A stretch of 55,407 nt of DNA. Origin: a virus (lineage: Duplodnaviria > Caudoviricetes). Of this stretch, positions 3,531 through 31,093 are shown one piece after another (position 1 is the stretch's first letter; each line of letters starts with the position of its first letter). The notes below the pieces were generated by a model that was not told the DNA's origin, did no database searches, and worked only from the letters and a program-made list of their open reading frames with translations. The stretch is taken from the IMG/VR virus record IMGVR_UViG_3300010366_000015, positions 1-55,407 of that record. The stretch is one strand, 5' to 3'. The translations under genes and the position numbers were made by a program.

Positions 3531-3682
3531 TTGCTTTCGCCCTATCTCCTGTACGGAGAGGCGGCAACCCGCCAAGGCACCCCCTCTCCGCCCCCCTTGG
3601 CCGTTCTGGAGGTCGGGCCGGGGGCGACGATTTTCCTCCGCGTCAGTCCGGCGTCAACCGAGAACGACGGGGGAACATGCAG

Positions 3683-5063: not shown

Positions 5064-5307
5064 TGGCCCTAGTCCCTTCATCGGTAGTCGTAGCGGTAGT
5101 CGTTACCGCGTTCTTTGCGGCACCGGAAGTATCCTCGCCTTGCATTATCAAATCAAGCATCTTGCGGCTCCACCGGGGCGAACGCGGGCCTGCCGCGTAA
5201 GAGGGCTTGGGCAGCACGCCGTCACGGACCAGCTTGTTGAACTTGGACACTTTGACGGACAGGTGGCGGGCGGCGTCTTCGCGCTCCATCCATTCTTCGC
5301 CGATCAT
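5002..5307 (-). CDS. Excisionase/AlpA-like DNA-binding protein
   Basis: EDAARHLSVKVSKFNKLVRDGVLPKP...PRW helix-turn-helix-wing, directly upstream of the integrase. Confidence 0.75.
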   Translation of the reverse strand: MIGEEWMEREDAARHLSVKVSKFNKLVRDGVLPKPSYAAGPRSPRWSRKMLDLIMQGEDTSGAAKNAVTTTATTTDEGTRANVEKILAQATRRRRSRRPIH

Positions 5308-12598: not shown

Positions 12599-12996
12599 TG
12601 AGCAAGACGTTGCGCCGGGTGGTTGGCGGGCGTGATCCCCGCTACCCGTGCAAGCGCACGCTGTCGGTGATCTTTGACGACGAAACCTTTTGGGAGGTCG
12701 TGGCGCGGGCTGAACGCGAGGGCACCAGCGCGAGTGAGCAAGTCCGGCTGTTGGTGACATGGGGGCTGGAAGCGGCGACGGCGGCTGTACCTAGGGCAAG
12801 AATACAACCGCCGTCTCTATCCCCGGCCAACGTGGGGGAAGGCCGGGAACCTTTGGCACGTCCACCGCGACGCGCCTTTACCCGAGACTCGGATTTTACC
12901 GCAAGCCCGGAGAACGGAGCAACCGCAAATGGCCACGCCACGGAGGTCAGGGCGCCGGACGCAAATCGGGGCGGAGTGGGGGCCGTCGATGGATGA
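12592..12996 (+). CDS. Putative ribbon-helix-helix protein
   Basis: RTLSVIFDDETF...AEREGTSASEQVRLLV. Confidence 0.55.
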   Translation: MVMSKTLRRVVGGRDPRYPCKRTLSVIFDDETFWEVVARAEREGTSASEQVRLLVTWGLEAATAAVPRARIQPPSLSPANVGEGREPLARPPRRAFTRDSDFTASPENGATANGHATEVRAPDANRGGVGAVDG

Positions 12997-14587: not shown

Positions 14588-14827
14588 TCACCCTATTTTG
14601 TGGGCCTCGATCTCGGCTCGGGTGGCGATCAGCGCGGACCAGAGGCGGCCACGCTGTTGCAGGATGCCATGACGCTCGCCGTCGCGGCTCCGCCATAGCT
14701 TGCCATCCTTGGTCGCCATGCCGTTGTTTTCCATCCACCTCCGGGCGGCGGTGCGGCTGGCATTGGACAGGATCAGCGGGCGATCGGCCATCATACGACG
14801 CTCCCGCACCACGCGGTACAGGGTCAT
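14588..14827 (-). CDS. Hypothetical early protein
   Basis: ATGA-coupled to the upstream ORF. Confidence 0.6.
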   Translation of the reverse strand: MTLYRVVRERRMMADRPLILSNASRTAARRWMENNGMATKDGKLWRSRDGERHGILQQRGRLWSALIATRAEIEAHKIG

Positions 14828-15138
14828 CGGGGCGGCTCCAACCCGGCCATGACGAACGGCTCGCTGCCTTCGAGGTCCCAACAGCCGCCAACGGTCACGA
14901 TTGCCGATCCATCGGCGAACACGAAGCGGGTGAAGCTGTTCGCGGTCGCCTCGCTGCGGGATATGGGCCGGATGTGATACTCGGTCTGGTACGCGCCGGG
15001 ATCGTCGGGCACGCTGTCGGCGTACTCGGCGATGCCGCCACGCTGCTGGCAGAGGTCTTCCAGCCATATGCCGTCAAGGGTCTGCCAGTGGGTGCCATCG
15101 TCGCCTAGCAGCGACGAAATCTCGGTTGCGGTAGTCAT
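14824..15138 (-). CDS. Hypothetical early protein (acidic)
   Basis: CTAGGGCA leader directly before the ATG. Confidence 0.7.
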   Translation of the reverse strand: MTTATEISSLLGDDGTHWQTLDGIWLEDLCQQRGGIAEYADSVPDDPGAYQTEYHIRPISRSEATANSFTRFVFADGSAIVTVGGCWDLEGSEPFVMAGLEPPR

Positions 15139-15165
15139 TGCCCTAGTCTCCGGTTGGTGGGTTAG

Positions 15166-15197
15166 GTCATATCACGGAAAGTATATAGCTCGCTACA
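15166..15197 (-). promoter_or_regulatory. Early promoter/operator repeat, copy 1
   Basis: TGTAG-CGAG-CTATA-N6-CCGTGATATGAC. Confidence 0.6.
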
Positions 15198-15447
15198 GGG
15201 ATTTCCGCCGTTTGCGTTTGGGTGGCTCGGTGTCAACCGGGGGCGGGTCAAGCCGCTCCCGAAGCGCCTTGTTCTCTTTCCAAGCCGCCATGAGGATCGG
15301 CACCCAATACGGGATACCGGCCGTGACGCCCCATTGGTAGACGGCTTGGCCGCTGACGTTCAGCGCCGTGGCCATCTTCCCCTTGGTGATCCCCAAAGCG
15401 CGGAGGTCGGCGACAAACCGCGCGTGTGTGTATTCAGCCATCGCCAT
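15193..15447 (-). CDS. Cro/XRE-like HTH regulator
   Basis: LGITKGKMATALNVSGQAVYQW; TAGGGCAA leader. Confidence 0.7.
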   Translation of the reverse strand: MAMAEYTHARFVADLRALGITKGKMATALNVSGQAVYQWGVTAGIPYWVPILMAAWKENKALRERLDPPPVDTEPPKRKRRKSL

Positions 15448-15499
15448 TTTGCCCTAGCTGGTCGAAACGGCCGGATTTCAGCCCGGCCGGTCGATTCGG

Positions 15500-15721
15500 T
15501 TATAGCCAATCTTCGAAACGGAAGTCGTCGCGTTTGGGATGCGGATTGCTGCCCGACGAACGGCGCTGATCCACGTACCGGAGAAATGGGCAAACGATCC
15601 ATTCCGATCCGGGCCAACGGCGCCGATACTCATCCCGATACCAAAGCGCGTCGCTGCGCTGATCCTGCGTCAGCGCCAGCCATACCCTGCCGTCATCGTG
15701 GCGGCCAATGAGTGCAAACAT
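15500..15721 (-). CDS. Hypothetical early protein
   Basis: TGATG-coupled. Confidence 0.6.
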   Translation of the reverse strand: MFALIGRHDDGRVWLALTQDQRSDALWYRDEYRRRWPGSEWIVCPFLRYVDQRRSSGSNPHPKRDDFRFEDWL

Positions 15722-15915
15722 CAGTCTTGCCGGTTGATCGCCAGCCGATAGCGGCCGACATCGTTGCCGTTGATGTCGCGGATCGTCTGGTAAAAGTCCG
15801 CATCGGCGAGGTCGAGCCGATCGGCGATAGTCCGCAGAATGCGCGCGATCTCGCCTGTCATGTCATCCGCGAACGCGGCATTGTCGCACGTCATCTGAAC
15901 CGTGAATCTGGCCAT
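15721..15915 (-). CDS. Small phage early protein
   Basis: DNAAF...EIARILR..A....I.D.NGN.VG recurrent phage motif; TAGGGCAA leader. Confidence 0.75.
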   Translation of the reverse strand: MARFTVQMTCDNAAFADDMTGEIARILRTIADRLDLADADFYQTIRDINGNDVGRYRLAINRQD

Positions 15916-15937
15916 GGTCTCTTGCCCTAGTGATGCA

Positions 15938-16003
15938 AGCTGGCATCGTCAGCCACCGGGAACAACCCCGGCAGGAGAGGCGGCCGAAGCCGCCCCTTTC
16001 GCC
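15938..16003 (-). ncRNA. Type II hammerhead ribozyme HH1 (CUC; cleavage predicted between 15975 and 15974)
   Basis: GGC GAAA GGGGCGGC-UUCG-GCCGCCUC UC^ CUGCCGGG-GUUGUU-CCCGGUGG CUGACGA U GCC AGC. Confidence 0.9.
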
Positions 16004-16059
16004 TAGCATCCGAAATGGTAATCGAGCCACCGGAGCAACCGGCGGAGCGTCGCGCGCAC
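16003..16059 (-). CDS. 18-aa micro-ORF MRATLRRLLRWLDYHFGC
   Basis: GGGAGG SD and GTG start; its TAG overlaps HH1 stem II, as stop codons do at the other ribozymes. Confidence 0.5.
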   Translation of the reverse strand: MRATLRRLLRWLDYHFGC

Positions 16060-16060
16060 G

Positions 16061-16432
16061 TCAGCCTCCCGTCACCGCGTAGACGCGGCACGGCACGGTG
16101 AAGTCAACGCCACGGTGGGCGCCGCTGAAACCGTGGTGAAAGAACCAGCACCAACCGTCGCGCGTCTCGCCAGTGTCAACGATGCGCTCGATCGGTATCG
16201 CCGGATCAAGCCCGCCCGACATCGACATGCCGGAACCGAAGAAATAGAACGATCCGCCGCCCTTGCTGGTCGGCTGGATTGAGTCGCCCCAATGGTGCGC
16301 GAACCGGCGCAACTCCCCATTGGCCAACCGCACAAAGTCGCCGACGCGTGGCCCGCTGCGGGCTTGCCACTCGATCAGCCGCTCGGCGCGTATCGCCGCA
16401 TCGCGTTCGTCAAATTCAAAGCGTTTGCACAT
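16061..16432 (-). CDS. Hypothetical protein of a type seen in mobile-element early/leading regions
   Basis: GPRVGDFV...GSF...SGGL...TGE...WFFHH...GV.F...CRVY; TAGGGCA leader. Confidence 0.75.
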   Translation of the reverse strand: MCKRFEFDERDAAIRAERLIEWQARSGPRVGDFVRLANGELRRFAHHWGDSIQPTSKGGGSFYFFGSGMSMSGGLDPAIPIERIVDTGETRDGWCWFFHHGFSGAHRGVDFTVPCRVYAVTGG

Positions 16433-16436
16433 TGCC

Positions 16437-16679
16437 CTAGTCCTCGATCTCGATTTCGTACCGCGTGCCGCCGTCGGTCAGCCGCAAGCCGGGCCGCGTG
16501 CGCGCGCCAGTGCCAACCGGGCCGCCCAATACCTCGCCTTTCATCACGGGCGGCTTGCCAAGGTGAATCTCCCCCTCTGCGAGTTTGCGAGTCACGTCGG
16601 CCGCGTCGTAGCCGTACGGCTTGAAGTACCGGCACGCCGCAGCGAGGTTGACGAAATAGCTAGTCCCGATCCGTGTCAT
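16437..16679 (-). CDS. Hypothetical early protein
   Basis: TAGGGCA leader; its own stop is the TAG of the next leader motif. Confidence 0.7.
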   Translation of the reverse strand: MTRIGTSYFVNLAAACRYFKPYGYDAADVTRKLAEGEIHLGKPPVMKGEVLGGPVGTGARTRPGLRLTDGGTRYEIEIED

Positions 16680-16699
16680 TGCCCTATCTCCGATGCGAT

Positions 16700-16770
16700 T
16701 GGCTGGCATCATCAGGCGACGGAAACCACTCCGCCGCGACAACGGGCGCCGAAGCGCCCGCCGTTTCGCC
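16700..16770 (-). ncRNA. Type II hammerhead ribozyme HH2 (GUC; cleavage predicted between 16738 and 16737)
   Basis: GGC GAAA CGGCGGGCGC-UUCG-GCGCCCGUUG UC^ GCGGCGGA-GUGGUU-UCCGUCGC CUGAUGA U GCC AGCCA. Confidence 0.93.
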
Positions 16771-17310
16771 TTACGCTGCAACCACCTCCCGAAGATTGCG
16801 GACCACGCGGCGGGCGTCCCATGCCTCGCGGACCATCTTCCGGTATTCCTCGCGATAGTTCCGCCGGAACGTTCTCGACTGGTGCGCGATAGCGTGGCGC
16901 GTCGCGCGTTCGTGCATTTCAGCCGACATCAGCATTGCGCGCGCCCGCCGGATCGGATCGGGCGCCGACTCCGTGCCGACGATAACGCCATCCGGCAACG
17001 CGCCCGCTGGCCAGTACTGCCCGGCTGGCAGCCTCGCATCGGGGCGGCATTTGATCCTAGTACCGCGTGCCGTCGTAAAGCTGCGCAGCTTGCTCGGAAT
17101 GGCGCACCAAAACGACGCGCCCGCCACCAAATGCCAGTTTTCCCCGACATCGGCCGCCACGGCTCGGCACGCCACCACGCGAGCGTCAAAAAACTCTTCC
17201 GCTGTCATAGCCGCCACCTTGGCAGCTTTGGCGCGCGGCTTTCGGATTGTCTGGCCGCAGCATGGGCAAACGCCCGTAGCGGCCGTGATGATTGGAGTGA
17301 TCGCGTTCAT
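16771..17310 (-). CDS. Hypothetical early protein (N-terminal CPCCG)
   Basis: TAGGGCAA leader; TAA stop abuts HH2. Confidence 0.7.
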   Translation of the reverse strand: MNAITPIITAATGVCPCCGQTIRKPRAKAAKVAAMTAEEFFDARVVACRAVAADVGENWHLVAGASFWCAIPSKLRSFTTARGTRIKCRPDARLPAGQYWPAGALPDGVIVGTESAPDPIRRARAMLMSAEMHERATRHAIAHQSRTFRRNYREEYRKMVREAWDARRVVRNLREVVAA

Positions 17311-17335
17311 TTTGCCCTATCAGTCTCGATTGCAT

Positions 17336-17408
17336 TGGCTGGCATCGTCAGACCACGGGAACCGCCCCGTGATGACAGCGGGCGCCGATCCGCGCCCGCC
17401 GTTTCGCC
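17336..17408 (-). ncRNA. Type II hammerhead ribozyme HH3 (GUC; cleavage predicted between 17374 and 17373)
   Basis: GGC GAAA CGGCGGGCGC-GGAUCG-GCGCCCGCUG UC^ AUCACGGG-GCGGUU-CCCGUGGU CUGACGA U GCC AGCCA. Confidence 0.93.
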
Positions 17409-17626
17409 TATCTGCGAGTGAGTTTGCGCCGCATCGCCTTATCGCTTTCGGACTGCGCCAGCCGGTACGCCCGCGCCATCATTTCGATCTCGCTGAACGC
17501 GAAGATCAGACGAAACCCGCCGTCGGCTCCGTTCACGTCGAACGTGAGGCTGTAGTCATCGGCGCCCGCAACCTGCAACGTCGCAGCTTGCGCGATCATT
17601 TCACCATTGGCTCGCTTGATAATCAT
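17408..17626 (-). CDS. Hypothetical early protein
   Basis: TAGGGCAA leader; TAG overlaps HH3. Confidence 0.65.
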   Translation of the reverse strand: MIIKRANGEMIAQAATLQVAGADDYSLTFDVNGADGGFRLIFAFSEIEMMARAYRLAQSESDKAMRRKLTRR

Positions 17627-17658
17627 GGGAATTGCCCTAGTCAGTTTGTAACGGCCGC

Positions 17659-17689
17659 AGAATACCACGGCCGTTTATAGGTTGCTACA
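17659..17689 (-). promoter_or_regulatory. Early promoter/operator repeat, copy 2
   Basis: TGTAG-CAAC-CTATA-N5-CCGTGGTATTCT (extended -10 TGnTATTCT). Confidence 0.65.
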
Positions 17690-17692
17690 GGA

Positions 17693-18097
17693 TTATGCGG
17701 CCGCCCGTTTGGTGCGCTCGCGACGTGCGCCAAGGTTGGCGTAGCATCGCGCCCGCCACTCCGCCGCGTAGCCGCCGATCTCTTCCACGGGCGAAAGCAT
17801 GGCAAGGATGCCAGCCGGGCAATGGGACTCGTATGGTCCCATATCCTCGCTCATTTCCTTCCAGCCAAAGCCGCCACGTCGCGATGTCAGCACGACAACG
17901 CCTAGCACGTAGTCCTTGCCCGGTCGCACGATGCGAGCCGCTGCGTACCACGTCGAACCGACAAACGCGGCTTTGAGGATCAAGCACGCGTGCCGATCGC
18001 CATTGGCGTCTAGTTTGTCGTGCTGAAACTCTTTCCGCAGAAAAGAGTCCGGTGTCTCGCCATACGCGAGACTGTCAATCGTAGTCCAACCACCCAT
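17693..18097 (-). CDS. DUF6927-like protein (plasmid/ICE-type hypothetical)
   Basis: FGWKEMSEDMGPYESHCP..IL..LSP...A.EWRARC. Confidence 0.65.
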   Translation of the reverse strand: MGGWTTIDSLAYGETPDSFLRKEFQHDKLDANGDRHACLILKAAFVGSTWYAAARIVRPGKDYVLGVVVLTSRRGGFGWKEMSEDMGPYESHCPAGILAMLSPVEEIGGYAAEWRARCYANLGARRERTKRAAA

Positions 18098-18125
18098 TGC
18101 CCTAGTCCTATTCCAAGTCTCGATT

Positions 18126-18199
18126 GCGGCTGGCATCGTCAGACGGCCGCCACCACGCGGCCGTGACGTGCGAGCGACGGGCGCCCGCACGTTTCGCCA
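18126..18199 (-). ncRNA. Type II hammerhead ribozyme HH4 (GUC; cleavage predicted between 18165 and 18164)
   Basis: UGGC GAAA CGUGCGGGCG-CCCGU-CGCUCGCACG UC^ ACGGCCGC-GUGGUG-GCGGCCGU CUGACGA U GCCA GCCGC. Confidence 0.93.
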
Positions 18200-18201
18200 C
18201 G

Positions 18202-18741
18202 TCACCCCACGTCGGCAGCGGATTTGTGATACCAATCGGATGACGCCACGCCACGCACCATGCGAGCCGAATTGCCGTCGGGCGCAATCCCGTGGTCCAA
18301 CTCCACTACCGCGTGGAGTTTCCGCATCGTTTCGTCACCGCGGTACACGTACATCAGCAACACGTCGGCATGGAGTCCGGCTCGCGCGACGTAGCCGTTC
18401 GAATGGTAGTCCGGCTGGAAATCGAACGCGATTGCATCGCCCGCCCGTAGCGTCGCCAGCAAGCTAGACGCGTGGCAATGCTGCGACGGATAGACGCTAA
18501 CATGCGCCCAACACTGCGCCCGAGACACGTCACGCGTCGGGAAATCGCCCAAGCACGTCACCTTAGCCGGGATGACGTGGCGCGCCTCCTGCGCGAACGG
18601 ATCGGCCGATTTGTCGGCTCGCTTGATGCAATGGACCAAAGTCTTTTCGTCGCGGTTCGGCTGAAACGCTACTAGCAGCGTGTCCATTTTGCGCAGTGCA
18701 ACAATGTCCAGCTTGGTCAGCACGTATGGGGAGGTAAACAT
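18202..18741 (-). CDS. Hypothetical early protein
   Basis: TAGGGCAA leader; flanked by HH5 and HH4. Confidence 0.75.
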   Translation of the reverse strand: MFTSPYVLTKLDIVALRKMDTLLVAFQPNRDEKTLVHCIKRADKSADPFAQEARHVIPAKVTCLGDFPTRDVSRAQCWAHVSVYPSQHCHASSLLATLRAGDAIAFDFQPDYHSNGYVARAGLHADVLLMYVYRGDETMRKLHAVVELDHGIAPDGNSARMVRGVASSDWYHKSAADVG

Positions 18742-18777
18742 TTGCCCTAGTTCCTAGTCAGTCAGTCAGTCGATACA

Positions 18778-18850
18778 GGCTGGCATCGTCAGACCGTGGC
18801 CACCACGCCACGGTGACAGCGGGCGCGACGTGGCGCCCGCCGTTTCGCCA
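18778..18850 (-). ncRNA. Type II hammerhead ribozyme HH5 (GUC; cleavage predicted between 18815 and 18814)
   Basis: UGGC GAAA CGGCGGGCGC-CACGUC-GCGCCCGCUG UC^ ACCGUGGC-GUGGUG-GCCACGGU CUGACGA U GCCA GCC. Confidence 0.93.
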
Positions 18851-18852
18851 CG

Positions 18853-19758
18853 TCACGCAGCGGCTTTCAGTTCCGCCACGTCAGCAAATTTCAGGAGATA
18901 ATCGGCGGCTTTCGAAGCCTGCGAGGCGGCCGAAATAATCGCCCGATTATCTTCGCGAAGCACGCTCAACCAAGAACCGATGTAATCCGCGTGGCGTACC
19001 GTCGGCTCGATACCTAAAGCCGCGCAAGTGAAAGCCGCGCCCATTTCGGCAACCAACTCTTCCCGCGCATAGTCGGGCGATCCGTGGCGGTTGGCGAATT
19101 TACGCGCCAGCCGATGTTCGGCGCCCGTCCAGTGCGTCAACTCGTGGAGCGTCGTTCTGTACCAATTGATCGCGTTCGGTTCGTACGCTTCGATCGGCGG
19201 AACTGCGATGCAGTCGCGGCCGATGTCATAGTACGCCCGGTTGCCAGCAACCGCGATCCGGGCGCCCGAGTTCCTAATCAGCCGATCGGCCGCCTCGTGC
19301 AATTCTGGCATCGTAGGGGCGGGCGGAGCATCGGGCGCCGCTGGCAGTCCGTCGCATTGCTCGCGATTAAAGACAGTGTACGCTTTCAGGAAATAAACGG
19401 CTCGCTGGTCATCTTCCGGCTTGGCGCGTTCAGCCTTGGGAATGAACCGATCGGCATAGACGACATGAACGCCACGTTCGCCCGCCCGTACGTGGCCGCC
19501 TAGTTCAGCGGCTTGCTTATACGTCAGCCAACCGTGAGAACGGTGTCCAACTGCCATCCCGTGAACCCATAGCAGGAGAACATTCACGCCCGAGTAGTTC
19601 CGCCCGGTTGCGGCATTGTGCGGTAACGCGATGGCCGCGCCCGCAACGTTATTCCGCCACGGCTGAACCCATGGGACAGTTCCCGCCTCTAGCTGCGAGA
19701 TTATGCGGTCTGTAACCGTCTGGTACAGATCGGCTCGATTTAACTTGCTGTCAGTCAT
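18853..19758 (-). CDS. ardC: ArdC-family antirestriction protein (ssDNA-binding + zincin-like domain)
   Basis: DLYQ.VTDRII..LEAG..PW.QPW, Y.G.N.L.LW, W.TYKQA..LGG.VR.GE, HELTHWT, YAREELVAE, HADYI.SWL. Confidence 0.93.
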   Translation of the reverse strand: MTDSKLNRADLYQTVTDRIISQLEAGTVPWVQPWRNNVAGAAIALPHNAATGRNYSGVNVLLLWVHGMAVGHRSHGWLTYKQAAELGGHVRAGERGVHVVYADRFIPKAERAKPEDDQRAVYFLKAYTVFNREQCDGLPAAPDAPPAPTMPELHEAADRLIRNSGARIAVAGNRAYYDIGRDCIAVPPIEAYEPNAINWYRTTLHELTHWTGAEHRLARKFANRHGSPDYAREELVAEMGAAFTCAALGIEPTVRHADYIGSWLSVLREDNRAIISAASQASKAADYLLKFADVAELKAAA

Positions 19759-19807
19759 TGAAGATTGCCCTAGTTAGTGTCGCGGCCATATCCCGCCGCT
19801 GGACAAA

Positions 19808-19839
19808 CCAATATCACGGGCGGGATATAGGGCGCTATA
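19808..19839 (-). promoter_or_regulatory. Early promoter/operator repeat, copy 3 (upstream of ardC)
   Basis: TATAG-CGCC-CTATA-N6-CCGTGATATTGG; perfect palindrome arms. Confidence 0.6.
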
Positions 19840-19847
19840 TATATTTG

Positions 19848-19876
19848 TTGAGCGGGCGGAAAAATCGTGATAGCTT
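19848..19876 (+). promoter_or_regulatory. Rightward sigma70-type promoter (divergent from ardC)
   Basis: TTGAGC-N17-TAGCTT with an extended TG. Confidence 0.55.
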
Positions 19877-19909
19877 TCCAACCGTCAAACCTAGATAGGG
19901 CACAACGCC

Positions 19910-20095
19910 ATGATGACTCTGACGAAAGCACAATTGATCGTTCGCAACCGGCTTGCCTATGAACCGCGCGAGGTACGCGAGGCGGCCGTATGGTTGCTCG
20001 GAAGCCTATCGGCAACCGACGAAGATGTTCGCGACGCGTCCCACGCAATCGCGGTTGGAACCCGCGATCGGCCGTCAGCTATCCCGCACAACTGA
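19910..20095 (+). CDS. Hypothetical early protein
   Basis: TAGGGCAC leader. Confidence 0.65.
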   Translation: MMTLTKAQLIVRNRLAYEPREVREAAVWLLGSLSATDEDVRDASHAIAVGTRDRPSAIPHN

Positions 20096-20155
20096 ACACC
20101 ACGGGCGCCCGTCACTCGGGCGGGCGCCGATCTCTCAAACCTAGGGCAATCCGCT

Positions 20156-20368
20156 ATGACTCATCCTGCAATCCACCGCTACAATATCGCCCGCGCCCGC
20201 GACGAAAACGCTCGCCTCGACTGGCAGCGCACGCAACAGGCGCATCGCGGCTACCTCATCATGCGGCTACTGACGGGCGGCTTTTCCGTCAGCCGCGACG
20301 GCTCGCATATCTGCTACGCCGAGTCAGTCGAGGCCGCCCGCGCCACAATCGACGCGTTGCTAGACTGA
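20156..20368 (+). CDS. Hypothetical early protein
   Basis: CTAGGGCAAT leader. Confidence 0.7.
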   Translation: MTHPAIHRYNIARARDENARLDWQRTQQAHRGYLIMRLLTGGFSVSRDGSHICYAESVEAARATIDALLD

Positions 20369-20411
20369 TCTCGGGCGCCAATCTCTCAACCTCAACCTAG
20401 GGCAATCCACA

Positions 20412-20732
20412 ATGACCGGATTCACAGTCTCTTATGACATCACCACGGAAGAGTCGGCCGAATATGGCGACACGGCCGAAAACGGGATACTCGGGCGCGA
20501 TCTCACGCTACGCGACGCAATTGAACTCGTTACCGCCACGCGGACCAATAGAGTCGGCGGCGTATCCTCGATCGAGTGCGACGAATCACCAATGCGGGCG
20601 CCGCGATGGGTAACGATCAATAACGGGATCGAGTACGAGTCGGGCGCCTATGAATCCCGTTCGCTCCATTTCCCGCCTCGTCTCACGGCCGCATCCCGCC
20701 GCCGTATCGCCCGTCTACTCGGAGTACGCTGA
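20412..20732 (+). CDS. Hypothetical early protein
   Basis: CTAGGGCAAT leader; YDITTEESAEYGD..E.G recurrent phage motif. Confidence 0.75.
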   Translation: MTGFTVSYDITTEESAEYGDTAENGILGRDLTLRDAIELVTATRTNRVGGVSSIECDESPMRAPRWVTINNGIEYESGAYESRSLHFPPRLTAASRRRIARLLGVR

Positions 20733-20735
20733 ACC

Positions 20736-21020
20736 ATGGCAACCAATCTCGACCCTACTCGCGACGAAATGCGGGAATATCTGAACTCGACCCCGTTCAT
20801 TCACGAGTGCGACGAATTCGACATCGAAGAGTCGATCTACTGGTTCGCGTCCGATTACCACGGCGGCCAATGGTCCAACCTCTACGCCGCACTGTGCGCG
20901 TCCGATTACTCGCCCGGACCAATCACCACGGGATGCGAGCCGGACTCCGTCGCGTCATACCTCTATGATGAACTGGTTCAGCATTTCGCCCCATCGCTGC
21001 GATTTGGCGAGACTGCCTGA
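20736..21020 (+). CDS. Acidic hypothetical early protein
   Basis: IYWFASDYHGGQWSNLYAAL recurrent phage motif. Confidence 0.75.
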   Translation: MATNLDPTRDEMREYLNSTPFIHECDEFDIEESIYWFASDYHGGQWSNLYAALCASDYSPGPITTGCEPDSVASYLYDELVQHFAPSLRFGETA

Positions 21021-21048
21021 TCTCTCCGCCTGATCTCGCCACCAATCG

Positions 21049-21077
21049 GCCGCCCCTAATCCGGGCGGCTGTTTTTT
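21049..21077 (+). terminator. Intrinsic terminator
   Basis: GCCGCCC-CTAATCC-GGGCGGC followed by TGTTTTTT. Confidence 0.75.
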
Positions 21078-21080
21078 GTT

Positions 21081-21109
21081 TGTATCCCGCTATAAATCCG
21101 TGCCATTGT
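21081..21109 (+). promoter_or_regulatory. Early promoter/operator repeat, copy 4 (degenerate)
   Basis: TGTAT-CCCG-CTATA-N3-CCGTGCCATTGT. Confidence 0.45.
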
Positions 21110-21145
21110 TCCCGCCTCGTTAACTGACTGATAGGGCAATCCCCA

Positions 21146-21487
21146 ATGATCTCTCCTGATACCCGCCGCTCCATCGAACGTCGCATCGTCCGCCGCATCC
21201 TGATCGAGGCCGTCCGCTCCGATTGCGTGATCTCCGTTTGGGACGGGGAAGACTGGTCAATTCGCCGCTCCAATAATCCAACCGCAATCCTCGCCGCCAT
21301 GTTCGCAACCGATGAAGAGACTCTGGTCATCCGTCGCGCCAGTGGCCCGCGCATCGGTTCAGTATTCCTCGTCTATGGCAACGATGGCCCCGACGTGATC
21401 TGCAACCATACCGACAGCGACGACATGAACGCGTTGCTCGCGCCCGCCTACGATCTCGCCGACCAGTTGGACAAACTCTACTCCTGA
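21146..21487 (+). CDS. Phage hypothetical early protein
   Basis: ISVWDGEDW...MFATDEE...LVYGNDG.DVI; TAGGGCAAT leader. Confidence 0.75.
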   Translation: MISPDTRRSIERRIVRRILIEAVRSDCVISVWDGEDWSIRRSNNPTAILAAMFATDEETLVIRRASGPRIGSVFLVYGNDGPDVICNHTDSDDMNALLAPAYDLADQLDKLYS

Positions 21488-21512
21488 TCCTCCGCCCGAT
21501 CTCTCCACGATC

Positions 21513-21540
21513 AAGCCGCCCCTAGCCGGGCGGCTTTTTC
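21513..21540 (+). terminator. Intrinsic terminator (near copy of 21049..21077)
   Basis: AAGCCGCCC-CTAGCC-GGGCGGCTTTTT. Confidence 0.8.
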
Positions 21541-21548
21541 GTTTCCGG

Positions 21549-21577
21549 TTGACTGCAACCATTTCAGCCGCTGTTCT
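21549..21577 (+). promoter_or_regulatory. Putative terS promoter
   Basis: TTGACT-N17-TGTTCT. Confidence 0.35.
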
Positions 21578-21612
21578 CCGCCGATCCGATTCGGCCGAAA
21601 GCATCGCAACCA

Positions 21613-22137
21613 ATGTCAGCTAAACAACTGAACCCGCAACAGGCGCAATTCGCCAAACTACTCGCCAGCGGCTTAGCCAAGGCGGAAGCCTACCGCCAAG
21701 TGTACCCGGGCAATTACTCCGCCCAATCGTGCGCAACCAAAGCCAACCGCCTCGCAAAGCATCCCCTCATCTGCGGCGTAGAGCGCCGCCGGGCGGCCGC
21801 CGTGGTCCGCGCGGTGGACAATGCCATAGAACGCTATGGCGTGACGGCGGACCGCGTAGCCGATGCCATGGCGAGGCTCGCGTTCACTGATCTCCGCCAA
21901 ATCGTTGACGTGCGGACCGTCAACGGCAAGCAACAGATCACAGTGCGCGATTGGGCGATCGTGGATGACAACGCGCACGCTGCAATCAGCGAGGTTCGAC
22001 GGGCGCCCAATGGCGAGGTGACCGTGCGGCTTTACAATAAGCTGGAAGCCTTGAACTCGCTGGCGCGGCTGAAAGGCTGGATTGCCGATCGGCCCGTGGA
22101 TCAGCGCCAACTGATCGCATTGAAGATTGAACGCTAA
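21613..22137 (+). CDS. terS: Terminase small subunit
   Basis: LNPQQAQFA...AEAYRQVY...A.RL..HP.I; VTADRV...ARLAF; VRLYNKLEAL..L. Confidence 0.8.
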   Translation: MSAKQLNPQQAQFAKLLASGLAKAEAYRQVYPGNYSAQSCATKANRLAKHPLICGVERRRAAAVVRAVDNAIERYGVTADRVADAMARLAFTDLRQIVDVRTVNGKQQITVRDWAIVDDNAHAAISEVRRAPNGEVTVRLYNKLEALNSLARLKGWIADRPVDQRQLIALKIER

Positions 22138-22200
22138 CCGTTAGCAGAATGTTCCGAACTGATAATCCCGCCTTGCCCTAGGCGTTGCGGCTGATTTGTC

Positions 22201-22420
22201 GCGGCTTTTGTTCGGCGGGCGGCTCGACCGGCTTCGATCGGCCGTCACCGGCTCGACCGGCGGGCGCCGCTGCCATGGCGTGAGGCTCCGCCACGGCCGG
22301 GCGGCTCGACCCCCCCCACCCCCAAGGTCGCAATCCGGCGATCAGGACCCGGGACCCCCCCCTCTCCACCGATTTGCCAACCGACGATTTTGGGCGGTAT
22401 CGGGTTCTGCGGCTTTTATT
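22201..22420. other. Candidate packaging (pac/terminus) region
   Basis: Directly after terS; three CGGCTCGACC repeats, two C8 tracts and an abrupt switch in strand base composition. Confidence 0.45.
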
Positions 22421-22505
22421 TAAGCGTGTCCGAATGATTGGGTCCCCTCGTTCTTTTTTTTGCGATGCCCGAAATTCATTCGAAGCGAGGCGGTCTCTGT
22501 ACCAA

Positions 22506-22697
22506 TCAGGGCGGGGTCTGTTTCTTTGGATCGGGTGTGGGATTGTTGAACTCGTTGAGCAGGGCTTCGAGGTTGGGGTCTTGTGCGACTTGGTTCCAGA
22601 GGTGGTCGAAGTTGCGCCACCATTGGGCTTTGTCTTGTGGGGTGTCGATATTGCCGACCATGAAGACGGCGACTTTGAGTTGGTCGATGTAGTTCAT
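22506..22697 (-). CDS. Hypothetical protein
   Basis: GGAGG SD. Confidence 0.6.
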   Translation of the reverse strand: MNYIDQLKVAVFMVGNIDTPQDKAQWWRNFDHLWNQVAQDPNLEALLNEFNNPTPDPKKQTPP

Positions 22698-22714
22698 TTG
22701 GGGTTTCCTCCGGT

Positions 22715-23014
22715 TCAGTCGGGATCGCGAGGGTTGGCGCACCAGAGGCAAGTGGTGGTGGTTGGGGAGTTGGTAGCGTGGCATCGGGAGCAGTACCAAG
22801 TTGGAGCGCCGCGAGGTGAGTGTGGGCCTTTGGGCATTTCGACGGGCTGGCCCCACTGGGAGTCGGTGGTGGCTTCTGCGAGGGAGGCGCGGAGTCCGGT
22901 GATTTCATCGAGGCACTCTCGCAGGAGACCGGGCCAGTCGATGGAGTCGGTCGGGAGTTTGTCGGCGAAGCCAAGGGCGTAGGTTCGGAGTTGGTCTTCG
23001 CGTTCTGGTGTCAT
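22715..23014 (-). CDS. Hypothetical protein with a C-terminal Zn ribbon
   Basis: WYCSRC...N....CLWC. Confidence 0.6.
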   Translation of the reverse strand: MTPEREDQLRTYALGFADKLPTDSIDWPGLLRECLDEITGLRASLAEATTDSQWGQPVEMPKGPHSPRGAPTWYCSRCHATNSPTTTTCLWCANPRDPD

Positions 23015-23274
23015 TGGTTATTCCATTGGCGTGGGGTGGTGTGACCGCAATCGGGGCAGCGGTAGGCGACGGTGATGTCCCGGTCGAGATCGTAGACGGC
23101 GATGCGGCGGGAGAAGTGGGTGTGTGAGCCGAAGTGTTGGCGATCGGCTTCGGGGATGGGTTCGGCCTGCCAGTCGGCGCCGCATTGGGGGCAGAAGCGG
23201 TTTTCGTTGTCTTTCATGCGTTGCTTGGCCTGTTGGATCATTTGCCAGTTGCGGTCTGTCATTCGATGCCTCAC
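23011..23274 (-). CDS. Zn-ribbon protein
   Basis: CPQCGADW...FSRRIAVYD...CPDCG. Confidence 0.7.
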   Translation of the reverse strand: MRHRMTDRNWQMIQQAKQRMKDNENRFCPQCGADWQAEPIPEADRQHFGSHTHFSRRIAVYDLDRDITVAYRCPDCGHTTPRQWNNQ

Positions 23275-23591
23275 TCGTCGTGGATGTTGATGAGGAAGGT
23301 CAGGAAGGCGTGGAGTTGTTCGATGTCGGTCCAGTCGAGTTTGGCGTCTAGGTTGAGGTGGTAGGTGTTGTCGGTTTCTTTATTGGTGACGTGGGAGGCG
23401 TGGATTGAGACGCGGACGTGATCGGGGTCGCTGTCGTCGTCGTTGAGGGTGAAGGAGAGTTCGGTGGTGGCTTGTGTGTGGCGTGGCAGCAGTTCGGTAC
23501 TGCCCCAAGTGCCGCCTTTGGTTGGTTGATCTTCACGTTGGGCGAGGCTGGCGGTGCCTTCGGTTATGAGGGCGATGTAGGTGTCCATCAT
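23271..23591 (-). CDS. Hypothetical protein
   Basis: GAGG SD; operon context. Confidence 0.55.
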   Translation of the reverse strand: MMDTYIALITEGTASLAQREDQPTKGGTWGSTELLPRHTQATTELSFTLNDDDSDPDHVRVSIHASHVTNKETDNTYHLNLDAKLDWTDIEQLHAFLTFLINIHDE

Positions 23592-23666
23592 TCGATGCCT
23601 CTTTAACGCGTCGCGGTTGGGTCGGTTGGCAGCGTGGGTTGGTGGCTCGATTGCGAGGTGGTGCGG

Positions 23667-24062
23667 TCAGGCTGCCGTGATTTTCACAGGGATGACGTAG
23701 CCGAGTTTGTTGCGGGCGTGGATGAGGCAGGTTTCTTCGTTGGATCGGACTGAGTTTGGGTGGATGTGGCCGTGTTCGTCCACGAAGGCGAAGGCTGTGA
23801 CGGGTGGTGGTGGTTGGGGCTGGATGGAGCGGAGGTGTTTGAGGGAGGTTTTGCCGAAGTTGGGGATGCGGAGCAGGGTGTTGTCGTCGGTGTTGAAGGC
23901 GTCTTCGAGTGTGGTTCGGCCGATTTCGAGCAGGCAGTTGGCCATACGGGTGGCTTGAAGTTTGTGGATGCCGTGTTCGATCAGGGCGGCTTTGAGGGAG
24001 CGGTATTGGTTTTGGCGTTGGGTGAAGGCTTCCAGTTCGGCGAGGGCTTCTTTGTCTGTCAT
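23667..24062 (-). CDS. RNA polymerase alpha-CTD-like domain protein
   Basis: RMANCL...LLRIPNFGKTSL matches the RpoA CTD (R..NCL...LL..PN.G.KSL). Confidence 0.75.
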   Translation of the reverse strand: MTDKEALAELEAFTQRQNQYRSLKAALIEHGIHKLQATRMANCLLEIGRTTLEDAFNTDDNTLLRIPNFGKTSLKHLRSIQPQPPPPVTAFAFVDEHGHIHPNSVRSNEETCLIHARNKLGYVIPVKITAA

Positions 24063-24562
24063 GGCTTGCCTTCCATGGAAGAGCGGGACGGGACGATCTT
24101 CATACGGAGCGGCTTGCGCCGCGTTTGTGTTGGCCCATCTTTTCCCCCCTACCCCCCTTTCCTTCCCGCAGACGTTGATGCGCGCGCACCGCGCATTTTC
24201 TGCTCGCACGGGACTACCGCCGGACTGTACGCGCTCTGTGTGGCGCGTCCTAGTAGCTGCGTCGCCAGTGCGGTCGTTGGGGACCGTCAGCGATCAGCGT
24301 TCGTGCGTGGCCGGGCCGACCGGGTAGTTCGAAGAAAGGGATGAACGGGATTGGCGCCGCGTCGTGGCCCGCTATCGCAGTGCGGGTGTCCCAAGGTGCG
24401 AAGCAGTCTGTTACGCAACAGAGCAGTTCGCGAGGGGGCCGCTGGTCTGGTAGCCGACCGGCGCTGTGTAGGCTCCTGCGGTGCGGGTGCGTCATGCCGG
24501 GCGGCGCCTCAAAGCTACGCCGTCGCGGTGGCGGGTCCGCTGTTATGAGGCAGGTATGTTCA

Positions 24563-25024
24563 TCAACGCCCGACCCATTCGTAGCCAAGGGCGTCTGCGT
24601 GTTCGCGTGATTTGAGTTCGATGACCTCTAGGGCACCTTCCAGTGTTGGGTGTGGTCCGATGGTGACGTGGATCGGCCATTTGACCGAAGATGGTGGCGA
24701 TGGTTTCGCGCGGCGACGACGGCGCTTGTCTGACGTGTCGATGGCGCGCTGGATTTTGTCGGCGCGGGTTGGCTTTGGCTGGTGCGGCTCGGGGTAGCCT
24801 GCGGCGATCCATTGCTTGGGCGGCAGCGGCTTGTGGCCGCCTGCCTTCTCCAGCTTGGCGTAGCGCGCATAGCGCAATTGGAAATCGGTGACTGCGGCAG
24901 GCGACAGGACCGCATCGGACAGCTTGGCGTATTTGACGGGGCCAGCCGGGCCGCGCGGCATTTCCAGCCAGCGGCGCTTGCCACCTAGCTTTCCGCCCCG
25001 AAGCCTGCCGACGTTCCTGTACAC
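24563..25024 (-). CDS. Basic hypothetical protein
   Basis: Open frame downstream of 25033..25221; start uncertain. Confidence 0.45.
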   Translation of the reverse strand: MYRNVGRLRGGKLGGKRRWLEMPRGPAGPVKYAKLSDAVLSPAAVTDFQLRYARYAKLEKAGGHKPLPPKQWIAAGYPEPHQPKPTRADKIQRAIDTSDKRRRRRAKPSPPSSVKWPIHVTIGPHPTLEGALEVIELKSREHADALGYEWVGR

Positions 25025-25032
25025 CGCGCTCG

Positions 25033-25221
25033 TTACCTGAAGACTGGTAGGCCGCTGCGACTGCGGAAGCATTTGTCGCAGAGGCGTTCATCGGGTTTGA
25101 CCTTGCCACCCCAATCGGCGCCGGGCTTGCTGGTGTAGGCGAGGAAGGCGTCTCCGCCGCAGTTGGTGCAGAGGAATTGCCGGATCGGCTGATCTGTCTG
25201 TGCGGTCTTCAGTTTAGCCAC
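25033..25221 (-). CDS. Small Zn-finger protein
   Basis: CTNC...CDKC; GGAGG SD. Confidence 0.6.
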   Translation of the reverse strand: MAKLKTAQTDQPIRQFLCTNCGGDAFLAYTSKPGADWGGKVKPDERLCDKCFRSRSGLPVFR

Positions 25222-28254: not shown

Positions 28255-28257
28255 GTT

Positions 28258-30758: not shown

Positions 30759-31073
30759 TTACGCGGCTTTCCGGCTGGTCTTCGCTTTCGTTCCGTTGGT
30801 GCCGCGCACAACCCGCAGCTTCGGCCGCTTCCGTTGGAATTGCTGCGTCTCATGCAGAACGAGGCGGTGATAGGCTTCGATCATCGCGAGGGTTATGGTC
30901 TTGCACCCATGTCGCCCTTCGCCGTTAATCTTCGAAATCCAAGCAAACCCGGTCATTAGTCTAAGCTCGCCGGGTTCTAGGTGTCGGTTCCACCGATCGC
31001 AGTATGCCTTGTCGAGATACCGGAACTCCGCAACCTCTTCGACTGCCGTGATGATTGAGTTGGCGATCCACAT
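30759..31073 (-). CDS. Hypothetical protein
   Basis: TAGGGCAA leader upstream (31082-31089). Confidence 0.6.
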   Translation of the reverse strand: MWIANSIITAVEEVAEFRYLDKAYCDRWNRHLEPGELRLMTGFAWISKINGEGRHGCKTITLAMIEAYHRLVLHETQQFQRKRPKLRVVRGTNGTKAKTSRKAA

Positions 31074-31093
31074 TTTGTCTTTTGCCCTATGAG

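Follow-up and report, generated by a model that had tools for sequence, protein, structure and literature searches.

The closest described counterparts of the sequence reported here are the start-associated sequences (SAS and ESAS) found in Cluster K mycobacteriophages, together with an SAS-like motif known from Cluster EF Microbacterium phages; no function had been assigned to SAS as of 2024–2025 (PMC3203893, PMC7302621, PMC11373665, PMC12699233). SAS has itself been contrasted (PMC3203893) with the stoperators of Cluster A mycobacteriophages (PMC9283540, PMC6550527). Two further systems are comparable. Hammerhead arrays flank single prophage genes and are thought to process a polycistronic transcript into mRNAs of one gene each (Perreault et al. 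2011, PMC3088659), and T4-type phages carry promoter-early stem-loop (PeSL) cassettes (Arbiol et al. 2010, PMC2839356).

Here we analyze a ten-base sequence, (C/A)TAGGGCAA(T/A), termed the tag, in a stretch of 55,407 nucleotides (the window). The phage is an uncultivated one from soil, and about 15 of its small accessory genes are tagged. As far as the cited descriptions extend, SAS and the tag are alike in being short and asymmetric and in recurring 10-19 times in a genome in one orientation, a few nucleotides ahead of start codons, mostly ATG, whose non-structural genes stand apart from their upstream neighbor; in both, conservation exceeds anti-Shine-Dalgarno (anti-SD) pairing and a subset carries a promoter-containing element upstream. 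The two share no sequence likeness: SAS (GGGATAGGAGCCC) is 13 bp long with a full AGGAG core, whereas the tag is 10 nt long and holds AGGG only. Unlike SAS, the tag has two spacing classes, including ATG-fused copies with a separate SD upstream, and is combined with hammerhead ribozymes. The terminase finds its nearest matches, at 36-44% identity, in phages whose hosts are mostly proteobacteria, and not in an actinobacteriophage.

TAGGGCA matched the window exactly 20 times against 2.57 expected (sd 1.5), and none of 100 shuffles of the window gave 20 or more matches. With at most one mismatch, CTAGGGCAA gave 25 matches against 6.06 expected. With 16 copies against 0.5 expected under an order-2 Markov model, TAGGGCAA was the most over-represented 8-mer of the genome; GGGAGGAA occurred six times. 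The information profile revealed a block with sharp edges, comprising eight invariant or near-invariant positions and two partly conserved flanks, with adjoining positions below 0.55 bit. The block shows no change across the 15 gene-linked copies. The sequence 5′ of it is A/C-rich, and the extension by GACT/AACT repeats, described as frequent in the original prediction, dwindled to GACT/ACTGA runs before only about 4 of 15 copies. No shared RNA fold was found around the tag, indicating that it would be read as sequence.

Comparison with a variant phage (L197+L196), 88-99% identical to the window (~95%), revealed intact TAGGGCA at 13/13 shared sites, with tag-adjoining spacers altered at four sites and non-coding divergence of 31/574; a plain column count gives 5/91 tag columns differing between the strains, all of them produced by a 1-nt alignment shift at 18743. 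Conservation far beyond that of an ordinary ribosome-binding site is supported. Among relatives beyond the variant phage no tag was found, its carriers being these two closely related genomes only, which gives the comparison little evolutionary depth.

Each of the 15 gene-linked copies is found on the coding strand, with 0-9 nt between it and a following ATG that is the first ATG/GTG/TTG of the open frame in 12 of these genes (Table 1). For the 14 copies that had been listed originally, each with an exact tag on the named strand, the gaps to the ATG are 0, 0, 0, 0, 1, 2, 2, 6, 7, 7, 7, 7, 7 and 7 nt. Under uniform placement in the non-coding leaders of tagged genes (17-151 nt long), the joint chance that 14 sites all lie this near an ATG is ~1e-8, which argues that the tag goes with the start codon rather than with intergenic DNA in general.

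The tag was said to precede nearly all non-coupled genes of one island, and it is present at 14 of the 18 genes in 14588-22137 (14.6-22.1 kb). Three untagged genes (15500-15721, 14588-14827 and 20736-21020) overlap or nearly abut the preceding stop, so that the untagged island genes are the translationally coupled ones, with the exception of 21613-22137, which also lacks an SD. Outside the island, an exact copy lies before 30759..31073, where a variant had been predicted, and the variant CTAGGGCCA before int at 5064-5072(-) and strong GGAGG-type sites at other genes of the phage were found; five more TAGGGCA copies (4998, 12792, 22174, 24629 and 51839) lie away from any start. These data support an association of the tag with the start codons of non-coupled genes in one accessory, early-looking region. 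That much of the proposed "early regulon" stands; the word "early" is suggested by gene content.

Table 1. Tag copies and associated elements in the window.
Feature	Position	Strand	Detail
Tag	19765..19773	-	7 nt to ATG of ArdC-like 18853-19758, first gene of leftward unit
Tag	18742..18750	-	1 nt to ATG of 18202-18741; AGGA core 5′
Tag	18097..18105	-	Abuts ATG of 17693-18097; AGGA core 5′
Tag	17632..17640	-	6 nt to ATG of 17408-17626
Tag	17312..17320	-	2 nt to ATG of 16771-17310
Tag	16679..16687	-	Abuts ATG of 16437-16679; GGAG core 5′
Tag	16432..16440	-	Abuts ATG of 16061-16432; GAGG core 5′; its TAG doubles as stop codon of 16437-16679
Tag	15922..15930	-	7 nt to ATG of 15721-15915
Tag	15449..15457	-	15193-15447: 2 nt to first ATG, 8 nt to second
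Tag	15138..15146	-	Abuts ATG of 14824-15138; GGAG core 5′
Tag TAGGGCAC	19895..19903	+	7 nt to ATG of 19910-20095, first gene of rightward unit
Tag	20141..20149	+	7 nt to ATG of 20156-20368; gene and tag absent from variant phage
Tag	20397..20405	+	7 nt to ATG of 20412-20732
Tag	21131..21139	+	7 nt to ATG of 21146-21487
Tag	31082..31090	-	9 nt to ATG of 30759-31073; outside island
Variant CTAGGGCCA	5064..5072	-	Abuts an ATG in integrase frame 4044-5081
Variant TAGGGCG	3539..3544	-	9 nt to an ATG; GGAG 5′
Orphan perfect tag	22173..22181	-	No ATG after; its TAG ends ORF 22178-22369; on + strand, exact complement in 4-bp hairpin loop just before terminator 22184-22205
Orphan perfect tag	12791..12799	+	Within open frame 12601-12991
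Hammerhead type II	18774..18850	-	49.0 bits
Hammerhead type II	18124..18199	-	49.7 bits
Hammerhead type II	17333..17409	-	45.3 bits
Hammerhead type II	16697..16771	-	43.6 bits
Hammerhead type II, sub-gathering	15934..16004	-	34.1 vs 37; E 5e-4
Promoter-like TATAWA-N-CGTGRTAT, putative	15169..15187	-	19 nt 5′ of tag 15139
Promoter-like element, putative	17662..17679	-	18 nt 5′ of tag 17633
CGTGATAT box, putative	19811..19818	-	Divergent control region, leftward face
CGTGATAG box, putative	19866..19873	+	Divergent control region, rightward face
Promoter-like element, putative	21091..21106	+	21 nt 5′ of tag 21132; comes after terminator 21047-21071
Terminator-like hairpin + T run	22184..22205	+	Ends rightward unit

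Tag-to-ATG distances form a short class (0-2 nt; 7 sites) and a long class (6-9 nt; 8 sites), and no site has a gap of 3-5 nt; site 15450, counted here in the short class, may belong to the long one because a second in-frame ATG follows the tag at 8 nt. A separate SD core lies within 9 nt 5′ of the tag at 5/7 short-class sites versus 0/8 long-class sites (Fisher p=0.007; background core frequency 0.044, binomial probability 3e-6 for the short class), values that overstate the evidence because the classes largely coincide with two paralogous leader families, the minus-strand ribozyme-linked and the plus-strand leaders, so that the 15 sites are not independent. Pairing with the host 16S rRNA may be of an unusual kind. 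In the long class the tag's own AGGG sits at canonical SD distance with no other SD present; beside short-class tags the cores vary (GGAG, GAGG, AGGA) and the tag is constant. Contrary to the original proposal, the tag thus does not replace the SD, and from the sequence initiation still looks SD-dependent. SD pairing cannot explain T1, C6, A7 and A8 of the tag. Since most short-class tags come with a separate SD, the tag appears to be conserved for something besides ribosome recruitment.

Five type II hammerheads, four of them above the Rfam gathering score, occur in the island, and a tag follows each by 4-24 nt (5/5), which bears out the statement that every ribozyme precedes one. This arrangement resembles the prophage arrays, as described in the cited sections of PMC3088659, in having several type II hammerheads between small genes and an anti-restriction neighbor (ardA in Agrobacterium, ArdC-like here); those sections mention no tag common to the leaders that follow the ribozymes, a feature present here. 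Hammerhead-like GGCGAAA lay just 5′ in 22/121 matches, 21 of these loci being from other phages, and none of the 21 had a tag within 70 nt downstream; among those whose sequences were listed, most had ordinary GAGG- or AAGGAG-type sites before the ATG.

Our preferred reading, which we hold tentatively and at somewhat less than an even chance, is that the tag is an RNA-level operator within the ribosome footprint, recognized by a trans-acting factor. Three roles had been offered (initiation element, RNA-binding-protein site and recombination site); the second fits best, and sequence alone can prove none of them. The tag would be a lineage-specific start-associated sequence and a cis element in mRNA leaders, present wherever a cistron of the region is translated independently and always under the 30S subunit footprint, between -1 and about -17 relative to the AUG. 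Ribosomes would be recruited by SD pairing, through the tag's AGGG at 6-9 nt or through a separate GGAG, GAGG or AGGA at abutting copies, and the factor would read T1, C6, A7 and A8 together with the flanking C/A and T/A, so that these letters are kept. That such a factor exists and acts on RNA, and with what sign and timing, we infer; among the tagged genes and their neighbors no candidate for it was found, only ORFans or weak HTH hits.

An unlikely alternative, although the best of those considered, is a standard ribosome-binding module acting only in cis, in which a weak SD in an A/C-rich, unstructured leader was passed among cistrons through duplication and recombination and then retained for translation efficiency, with no trans factor. 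The AGGG at canonical SD spacing in 8/15 sites agrees with this, as do the A/C-rich 5′ region, the lack of consistent pairing over the tag, the paralogy of the ribozyme-plus-leader units (~79% identical to each other) and the ordinary SD at the equivalent place in other hammerhead phages; strong selection could also leave such a module invariant. However, the seven abutting tags are too near the ATG for anti-SD pairing, yet their letters are invariant while the real SD beside them varies, and the flanks of paralogous leaders have decayed to background around a block unchanged in 15 copies. Moreover, no mechanism is known for a register-free 8-mer enhancer working at both 0-2 and 6-9 nt.

A DNA-level operator is less probable still. 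Here a phage DNA-binding protein, for example an immunity repressor, would bind an asymmetric double-stranded site and, in the lysogen, block or modulate transcription across the accessory region. In the stoperator literature cited, stoperators share with the tag their asymmetry, multiple copies, orientation with transcription and location in short intergenic gaps; the 15-17 tag copies in non-coding gaps are always co-oriented with transcription on both divergent arms, and the phage encodes several HTH-type proteins. But stoperators are 13-14 bp long against a 10-nt block, are recognized by the immunity repressor at the DNA level, and are spread genome-wide with no fixed relation to start codons, whereas the tag occupies one region plus three outliers rather than both arms. 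A roadblock requires no contact with the start codon, yet every copy is ≤9 nt from an ATG, and no tag copy lies at the promoter-like boxes themselves.

Gene cassettes differ between the two strains at tagged leaders. The variant phage carries an unrelated ORF in place of 19910-20095, with homology ending right at the tagged ATG; it lacks 20156-20368 with its tag, the junction falling inside a repeated leader, and 20736-21020 is gone too. As described in the cited parts of PMC2839356, PeSL units and tagged leaders are alike as repeated small regulatory units that separate non-essential ORFans in a hyperplastic region, and at which insertions, deletions and replacements between close strains are located; PeSLs are promoter-plus-terminator units acting on transcription, and the tag is a 10-nt start-codon block. 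That the tag primarily marks an exchange site for accessory genes, by PeSL-like homologous recombination of leaders or by a site-specific enzyme, with its start position a by-product, is very improbable despite these swaps, the ORFan nature of the genes and a gene-less orphan tag at the end of a leftward unit, as eight invariant bases are insufficient for homologous recombination, the only resolved junction used ~40-nt leader homology and not the tag, the third difference (20713>21039) ends away from any tag, the island has no recombinase associated with it, and two exact spacing classes with complementary SD cores are left unexplained.

Under the preferred reading of an RNA-level operator, hammerheads, promoter-like boxes and hairpins would cut or start RNA just 5′ of the tag, so that each tagged cistron would come first on a separate RNA and carry a standardized leader; as a side effect, the repeated leaders may provide homology for gene-cassette swaps. 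In phage T4 RegB and RegA, and in P1 c4 and P4 CI antisense RNAs, one trans factor controls many ribosome-binding sites by way of a short sequence; in RiboJ-type synthetic insulators a ribozyme gives each cistron a standard 5′ leader. The likeness of these systems to the tag is functional only and suggests a candidate logic. Candidates for the factor are RNA-binding proteins, complementary small RNAs and sequence-specific endoribonucleases; any of these would control the tagged cistrons as one group, in the simplest case by covering or cleaving the region where initiation takes place, a proposed switch that would follow the logic of T4 RegA/RegB and the P1 c4 antisense RNA.

The TAGGGCA(A) element that precedes start codons (hereafter the tag) dominates the word composition of the window: TAGGGCA occurs 20 times against 2.57 expected, a count reached in 0 of 100 shuffles, and no other 8-mer of the genome is as strongly over-represented as TAGGGCAA (16 versus 0.5 expected). 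The next unrelated over-represented word, GGGAGGAA, is a canonical ribosome-binding word enriched approximately 10-fold. The inventory comprises 15 gene-linked copies, 2 variants, and 2 orphans. Alignment of the 15 gene-linked copies on the tag revealed a conserved block of 10 nt, (C/A)TAGGGCAA(T/A), whose first seven core letters (T, A, G, G, G, C, and A) do not vary and whose eighth is A in 14 copies; information outside the block is at most 0.55 bit per position in this alignment.

All 15 gene-linked copies share the coding strand of their gene and lie 0-9 nt before its ATG, with gaps of 3-5 nt at none of the sites. Each of the 14 places named in the original prediction holds an exact copy on the strand assigned to it, and the copy at 31083 is likewise exact. 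In 12 of the 15 genes, no possible start of the open frame comes before the tagged ATG (starts being predicted); the remaining three have earlier GTG or TTG codons, which fall within a ribozyme or hairpin. Non-coding leaders of tagged genes span 17 to 151 nt; were tags placed at random within them, the joint chance of all lying within 9 nt of the ATG would be ~1e-8, which argues that the tag is tied to the start codon and not just to intergenic DNA.

The tag had also been said to precede nearly every gene of the island (genes in 14588-22137) that is not translationally coupled, and the gene map agrees: 14 of the 18 genes are tagged, and three of the four without a tag overlap the stop codon before them or come close to it. 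The remaining one, the small-terminase-like gene 21613-22137, carries neither tag nor Shine-Dalgarno (SD) sequence. The structural region (32-55 kb) contains no gene-linked tag, its sole copy (51839) being inside a gene.

Positions of tags, tag variants, and promoter-like boxes in the window, with changes at the tag in the variant strain (L197 and L196)
Feature	Position (strand)	Distance to ATG (nt)	Variant strain
TAGGGCG, ahead of an ATG	3539		
Integrase-proximal variant, CTAGGGCCA+ATG	5064-5072		
Tag	15139	0	
Tag	15450	2	
Tag	15923	7	
Tag	16433	0	
Tag	16680	0	
Tag	17313	2	
Tag	17633	6	
Tag	18098	0	CAATG to CAAATG
Tag	18743	1	tag shifted one base, then G
Tag	19766	7	
Tag	19896	7	
Tag	20142	7	
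Tag	20398	7	one inserted base
Tag	21132	7	three upstream bases missing
Tag	31083 (-)	9	
TATAWA/CGTGRTAK box	15169-15187 (-)		
TATAWA/CGTGRTAK box	17662-17679 (-)		
TATAWA/CGTGRTAK box	19811-19818 (-)		
TATAWA/CGTGRTAK box	19866-19873 (+)		
TATAWA/CGTGRTAK box	21091-21106 (+)		

The proposal that the tag replaces the SD sequence is not supported in that form. In the long class (eight tags, 6-9 nt from the ATG), AGGG lies 8-11 nt before the AUG, a normal SD geometry, and no site has another SD core. In the short class (seven tags, 0-2 nt from the ATG), AGGG is only 2-4 nt from the AUG, and five of the seven sites carry GGAG, GAGG, or AGGA in the 9 nt that precede the tag, at a distance of 8-10 nt from the AUG. 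AGGG sits at SD distance in 8 of 15 copies, whereas the short-class tag, with its separate core in 5/7, does not appear to be the SD element. The difference between classes (5/7 versus 0/8; Fisher p = 0.007) and the excess over the background frequency of such a core (0.044 per 9 nt of genome; binomial probability 3e-6 for 5/7 short-class sites) are generous estimates, because class membership largely follows leader family and the leaders are paralogous, so that sites are non-independent. Short-class tags belong mostly to ribozyme-linked minus-strand leaders and long-class tags mostly to plus-strand leaders, and the ribozyme-leader units are paralogs with ~79% identity. At 15450, one of the two short-class exceptions, a second in-frame ATG lies 8 nt past the tag, and this copy may in fact be a long-class tag.

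From one site to another, the SD cores next to the tag vary; the tag itself never does. Pairing energies were calculated with a generic 16S rRNA tail, from which that of the host may differ; on this basis, AGGG pairs at approximately -3.3 kcal/mol versus -7 to -11.7 kcal/mol for the strong sites of the phage. Such strong GGAGG-type sites occur in the rest of the genome, in line with the GGAG/GGAGG sites originally noticed there. Judged with the same generic tail, T1, C6, A7, and A8 are invariant or nearly so and extend beyond the 16S-pairing bases. Because SD cores differ from site to site and the tag is constant, ribosome recruitment appears conventionally SD-driven. Read from sequence, the tag does not appear to be the Shine-Dalgarno sequence; it would be kept for a second reason that requires a place inside the ribosome footprint and no fixed register.

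Upstream of the tags, five predicted type II hammerhead ribozymes are each followed by a tag at a gap of 4-24 nt, as had been predicted. Four score 43.6-49.7 bits (Rfam RF02276; gathering score 37) with the conserved core present, and the fifth scores 34.1 bits, under the gathering score. Perreault et al. described ribozyme arrays of this type, and cleavage by such arrays has been demonstrated in other prophages (PMC3088659). Five of the 15 tags are preceded, 18-34 nt upstream, by a box of the form TATAWA-N(2-8)-CGTGRTAK, and CGTGRTAK occurs away from tags once in the window, at 39854; these boxes are probably a family of extended -10 promoters heading transcription units. Three tags come after G+C-rich hairpins, one shares bases with the stop codon of the gene before it, and one lies within a 20-nt gap. 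We infer that each tagged cistron would have an RNA of its own, primary or processed, and would lie at or close to the 5' end of that RNA. Folding of 117 nt around each copy revealed no common fold, and the mean unpaired probability of the tag (0.31-0.66) is near the local average; in the absence of a shared fold, the tag would be read as sequence.

Only one tag-bearing relative was found, a 15.6-kb soil metagenome contig (L197 and L196) matching window positions 14707-30574 at 88-99% identity; run X2 shows the same variant. At each of the 13 gene-linked sites that it shares with the window, this strain retains TAGGGCA intact, with the adjoining letters altered at four. Coding DNA differs between the strains at 215/4852 positions and other non-coding DNA at 31/574 (5.4%); at that non-coding divergence, 13 of 13 intact 7-mers have a chance of ~0.006 by our own arithmetic, which assumes independent sites. 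A plain count of tag columns gives 5/91 differences, all from the one-base shift at 18743. The five hammerheads (15934-18850, minus strand) differ at 2 of 376 positions, which suggests strong constraint on the ribozymes.

We tentatively interpret the tag as an mRNA operator located in the initiation region; a trans-acting factor would read it and control all tagged cistrons jointly. This reading is proposed because the tag is a conserved 10-nt block at -1 to -17 of the AUG, occurs in two registers, is separable from the SD core, is absent from coupled cistrons, and is kept in a diverging strain. The factor (a protein, small RNA, or nuclease) would read the tag in the initiation region and block or cut that region of all tagged cistrons together. 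Blocking or cutting would be the simplest action, since the register within the footprint does not matter to a blocker, whereas it should matter to an enhancer.

A standard leader acting in cis only, with no such factor, is an unlikely alternative reading of the same constant block. A DNA operator of the stoperator type is more doubtful still. Stoperators are asymmetric DNA sites of 13-14 bp bound by the immunity repressor (PMC9283540, PMC6550527); they are distributed genome-wide and hold no fixed position relative to starts, whereas the tag has a 10-nt block, is clustered in 15-21 kb, and is tied to the ATG. This tie weakens the DNA operator reading.

Cassette differences between the two strains bear on a further alternative, that the tag primarily serves as a cassette junction. 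In the variant, 19910-20095 is swapped for an unrelated ORF, with homology ending at the tagged ATG; 20156-20368 is missing together with its tag, the junction lying within a ~40-nt repeated leader; and 20736-21020 is missing with junctions that do not involve a tag. Two of three differences in this single strain pair therefore end at tagged leaders, and the turnover resembles the shuffling mediated by promoter-early stem-loop (PeSL) cassettes of T4-type phages (PMC2839356). Nevertheless, the homology used spans the whole leader, and the tag plays no part in one of the three events; a primary junction function is very improbable.

Other roles were also set aside. The CsrA site consensus includes GGA, which the tag lacks. 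For a promoter element, the block is too short and the start point would fall inside the gene at seven sites; for a Chi-like protection site, orientation tracks transcription rather than genome ends and the copies hug the ATG. The TAG of the tag is not a universal stop, as it ends an in-frame upstream ORF at one gene-linked site only, plus possibly at the orphan. The tag is not part of the ribozyme fold, given that a ribozyme is missing at 10 of 15 copies and that the ribozyme-tag distance varies over 4-24 nt, and a shared RNA hairpin at the tag was dropped after folding.

A link between the tag and a protein resembling ribosome modulation factor (RMF) was also dropped, because six IMG/VR loci with RMF-like relatives lack both tag and ribozymes: they contain 0-3 TAGGGCA copies and no Rfam hammerhead, and in three inspected loci no start tag appeared among repeated 8-mers. 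The protein, encoded at 9448-10179 (+), has 215-243 aa and an N-terminal RGRP-type basic stretch, and its residues 164-210 match RMF weakly, below the cut-off in both libraries (Pfam PF04957, E 4.9e-4, 20.5 bits versus 27.9; NCBIfam NF011162, E 0.0019). We found 17 homologues (35-63% identity); most are encoded on phage-sized contigs, and a single homologue is called RMF by one source.

A possible source of a small RNA lies at 22173-22181, a perfect 9-nt tag copy with no start codon behind it. Its plus strand reads TTGCCCTAG, which complements the tag exactly and occupies the loop of a hairpin with 4 bp, directly before the terminator-like hairpin and T run that close the rightward unit. The hairpin and terminator would have the anatomy of a 3'-end-derived regulatory RNA, and the 88-nt tail from the stop codon to past the terminator is identical in the variant, where the first half of the preceding gene is mosaic. 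The fold is no better than shuffles (z = -0.97), and on the minus strand the orphan is a tag whose TAG ends ORF 22178-22369 and can be read as a leader without a cassette behind it. That the phage makes an antisense small RNA from this hairpin that reads the tag is distinctly improbable.

The window has a G+C content of 62% (55,407 bases) and encodes a tyrosine integrase (4044-5081), the recombination and replication genes YqaJ, RusA, and DnaB, and one tRNA, tRNA-Ser. Its large terminase (34930-36408) shares 36-44% identity with those of phages of Cronobacter, Vibrio, Pelagibacter, Burkholderia, Rhizobium, and others, and its DNA is present in only two public runs, both soil metagenomes. The tagged genes are ORFans; for 18202-18741, we found no relative in IMG/VR, and a near-length search of 5.8 billion proteins returned only the protein itself.

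Several further features were observed. The phage protein at 23667-24209 (-) contains a region like the RNA polymerase alpha C-terminal domain (Pfam PF03118, E 1.3e-6, 28.4 bits versus a cut-off of 23.8). Four copies of GATCTCTC occur in the rightward unit (20129, 21019, 21148, and 21498, plus strand), three of them just past a stop codon or ahead of a hairpin. Two runs of 8-9 C lie between the convergent units (22310-22365, plus strand), and the variant strain has one of them with a different length or composition. A 10-nt inverted repeat, ATATCCCGCC ... GGCGGGATAT, with arms ~22 nt apart, lies between both tagged units in the divergent control region (19780-19830) and is a possible operator.

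Beyond this relative, wider searches yielded no further carrier of the tag. The 15-mer of the ribozyme 3' end matched at least 118 IMG/VR loci, with a tag within 70 nt downstream in none of the 121 matches listed; among these listed matches, GGCGAAA, a ribozyme-like 5' part, lies upstream in 22 (21 loci), and the printed downstream sequences mostly contain ordinary GAGG- or AAGGAG-type sites. A combined ribozyme and tag pattern gave two matches in 185,579 species genomes, both by chance, and 17 loci in metagenome contigs, where the only kin were the two pieces of one contig (L196 and L197). A 17-mer leader pattern hit 28 IMG/VR loci, none with clustered tags. The terminase search retrieved 12 loci without a tag, one a 100%-identical fragment (L119) and the others at most 47% identical. 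Blastn of a 7-kb query against 50,697 phage records returned six records, each covering at most 1% of the query.

The ArdC-like protein search retrieved 52 loci, the best at 59% identity, none with more than four TAGGGCA copies; the five closest (L133-L137) contain no Rfam hammerhead. In one of these viral contigs, L136, ~14 tandem 24-nt units starting CTCATCCGTCG form an iteron-like array at 6327-6660 (+). Across 44 low-G+C IMG/VR loci with ArdC-like proteins (L138-L184, 378 kb), ACCTAAC, often within TAACCTAACTA, occurs 203 times versus ~50 expected from base composition, and in 139 cases an SD-like core and ATG come within the next 32 nt. It lies upstream of a normal GGAG, often after a hairpin, and its placement marks it as a second, distinct start-linked leader motif, in ArdC-bearing arrays of phages unrelated to the window.

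The closest known parallel in position is provided by the start-associated sequences (SAS) of Cluster K mycobacteriophages. SAS are 13 bp long, present in 11-19 copies, rare or absent in the host genome, conserved beyond SD pairing, and located 3-7 bp (at most 9 nt) before mostly ATG starts of non-structural genes in one orientation, a subset having an extended upstream element (ESAS) that holds a promoter (PMC3203893, PMC11373665, PMC12699233). They occupy the ribosome-binding position and contain an AGGAG core (PMC3203893); a look-alike occurs in Cluster EF Microbacterium phages (PMC7302621). SAS have been reported since 2011, and papers of 2024-2025 continue to describe their function as ill-defined (PMC11373665, PMC12699233).

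With SAS, the tag shares copy number, asymmetry, ATG proximity, orientation, restriction to non-structural genes, and conservation beyond 16S pairing. However, its core is AGGG rather than AGGAG, it lies at SD distance in only 8 of 15 copies and abuts the ATG in 7, and comparison by eye found no sequence likeness to the Cluster K/EF consensus. The counterpart of ESAS would be the promoter-like box upstream of 5 of 15 copies, whose promoter role is predicted. Since position and copy number agree but an AGGAG core at the ribosome-binding position in all copies and sequence likeness are both missing, the tag would fall outside the SAS sequence family. Beyond SAS, it adds two registers with a separable SD, and ribozymes; SAS occur in mycobacteriophages, whereas the terminase of the tag phage is closest (36-44%) to those of phages of mostly proteobacterial hosts.

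About one-third of copies have tag and SD core apart, and the others have them fused, so that nature has itself dissected the SAS problem; because of this separation, the role of the tag can be tested without touching ribosome recruitment. Together with the predicted self-cleaving ribozymes, the tag would form a natural ribozyme insulator plus standard leader before swappable accessory genes beside an anti-restriction gene. If a trans-acting factor exists, the tag would be a compact handle for switching a whole phage accessory gene set. Were the small RNA expressed, it could by itself base-pair at the initiation regions of all 15 tagged genes and silence the accessory genes together, acting on cistrons given a standard leader by natural ribozyme insulators. 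If true, a temperate phage would possess a regulon-wide translational switch based on RNA, and SAS-type motifs would gain a first testable mechanism.
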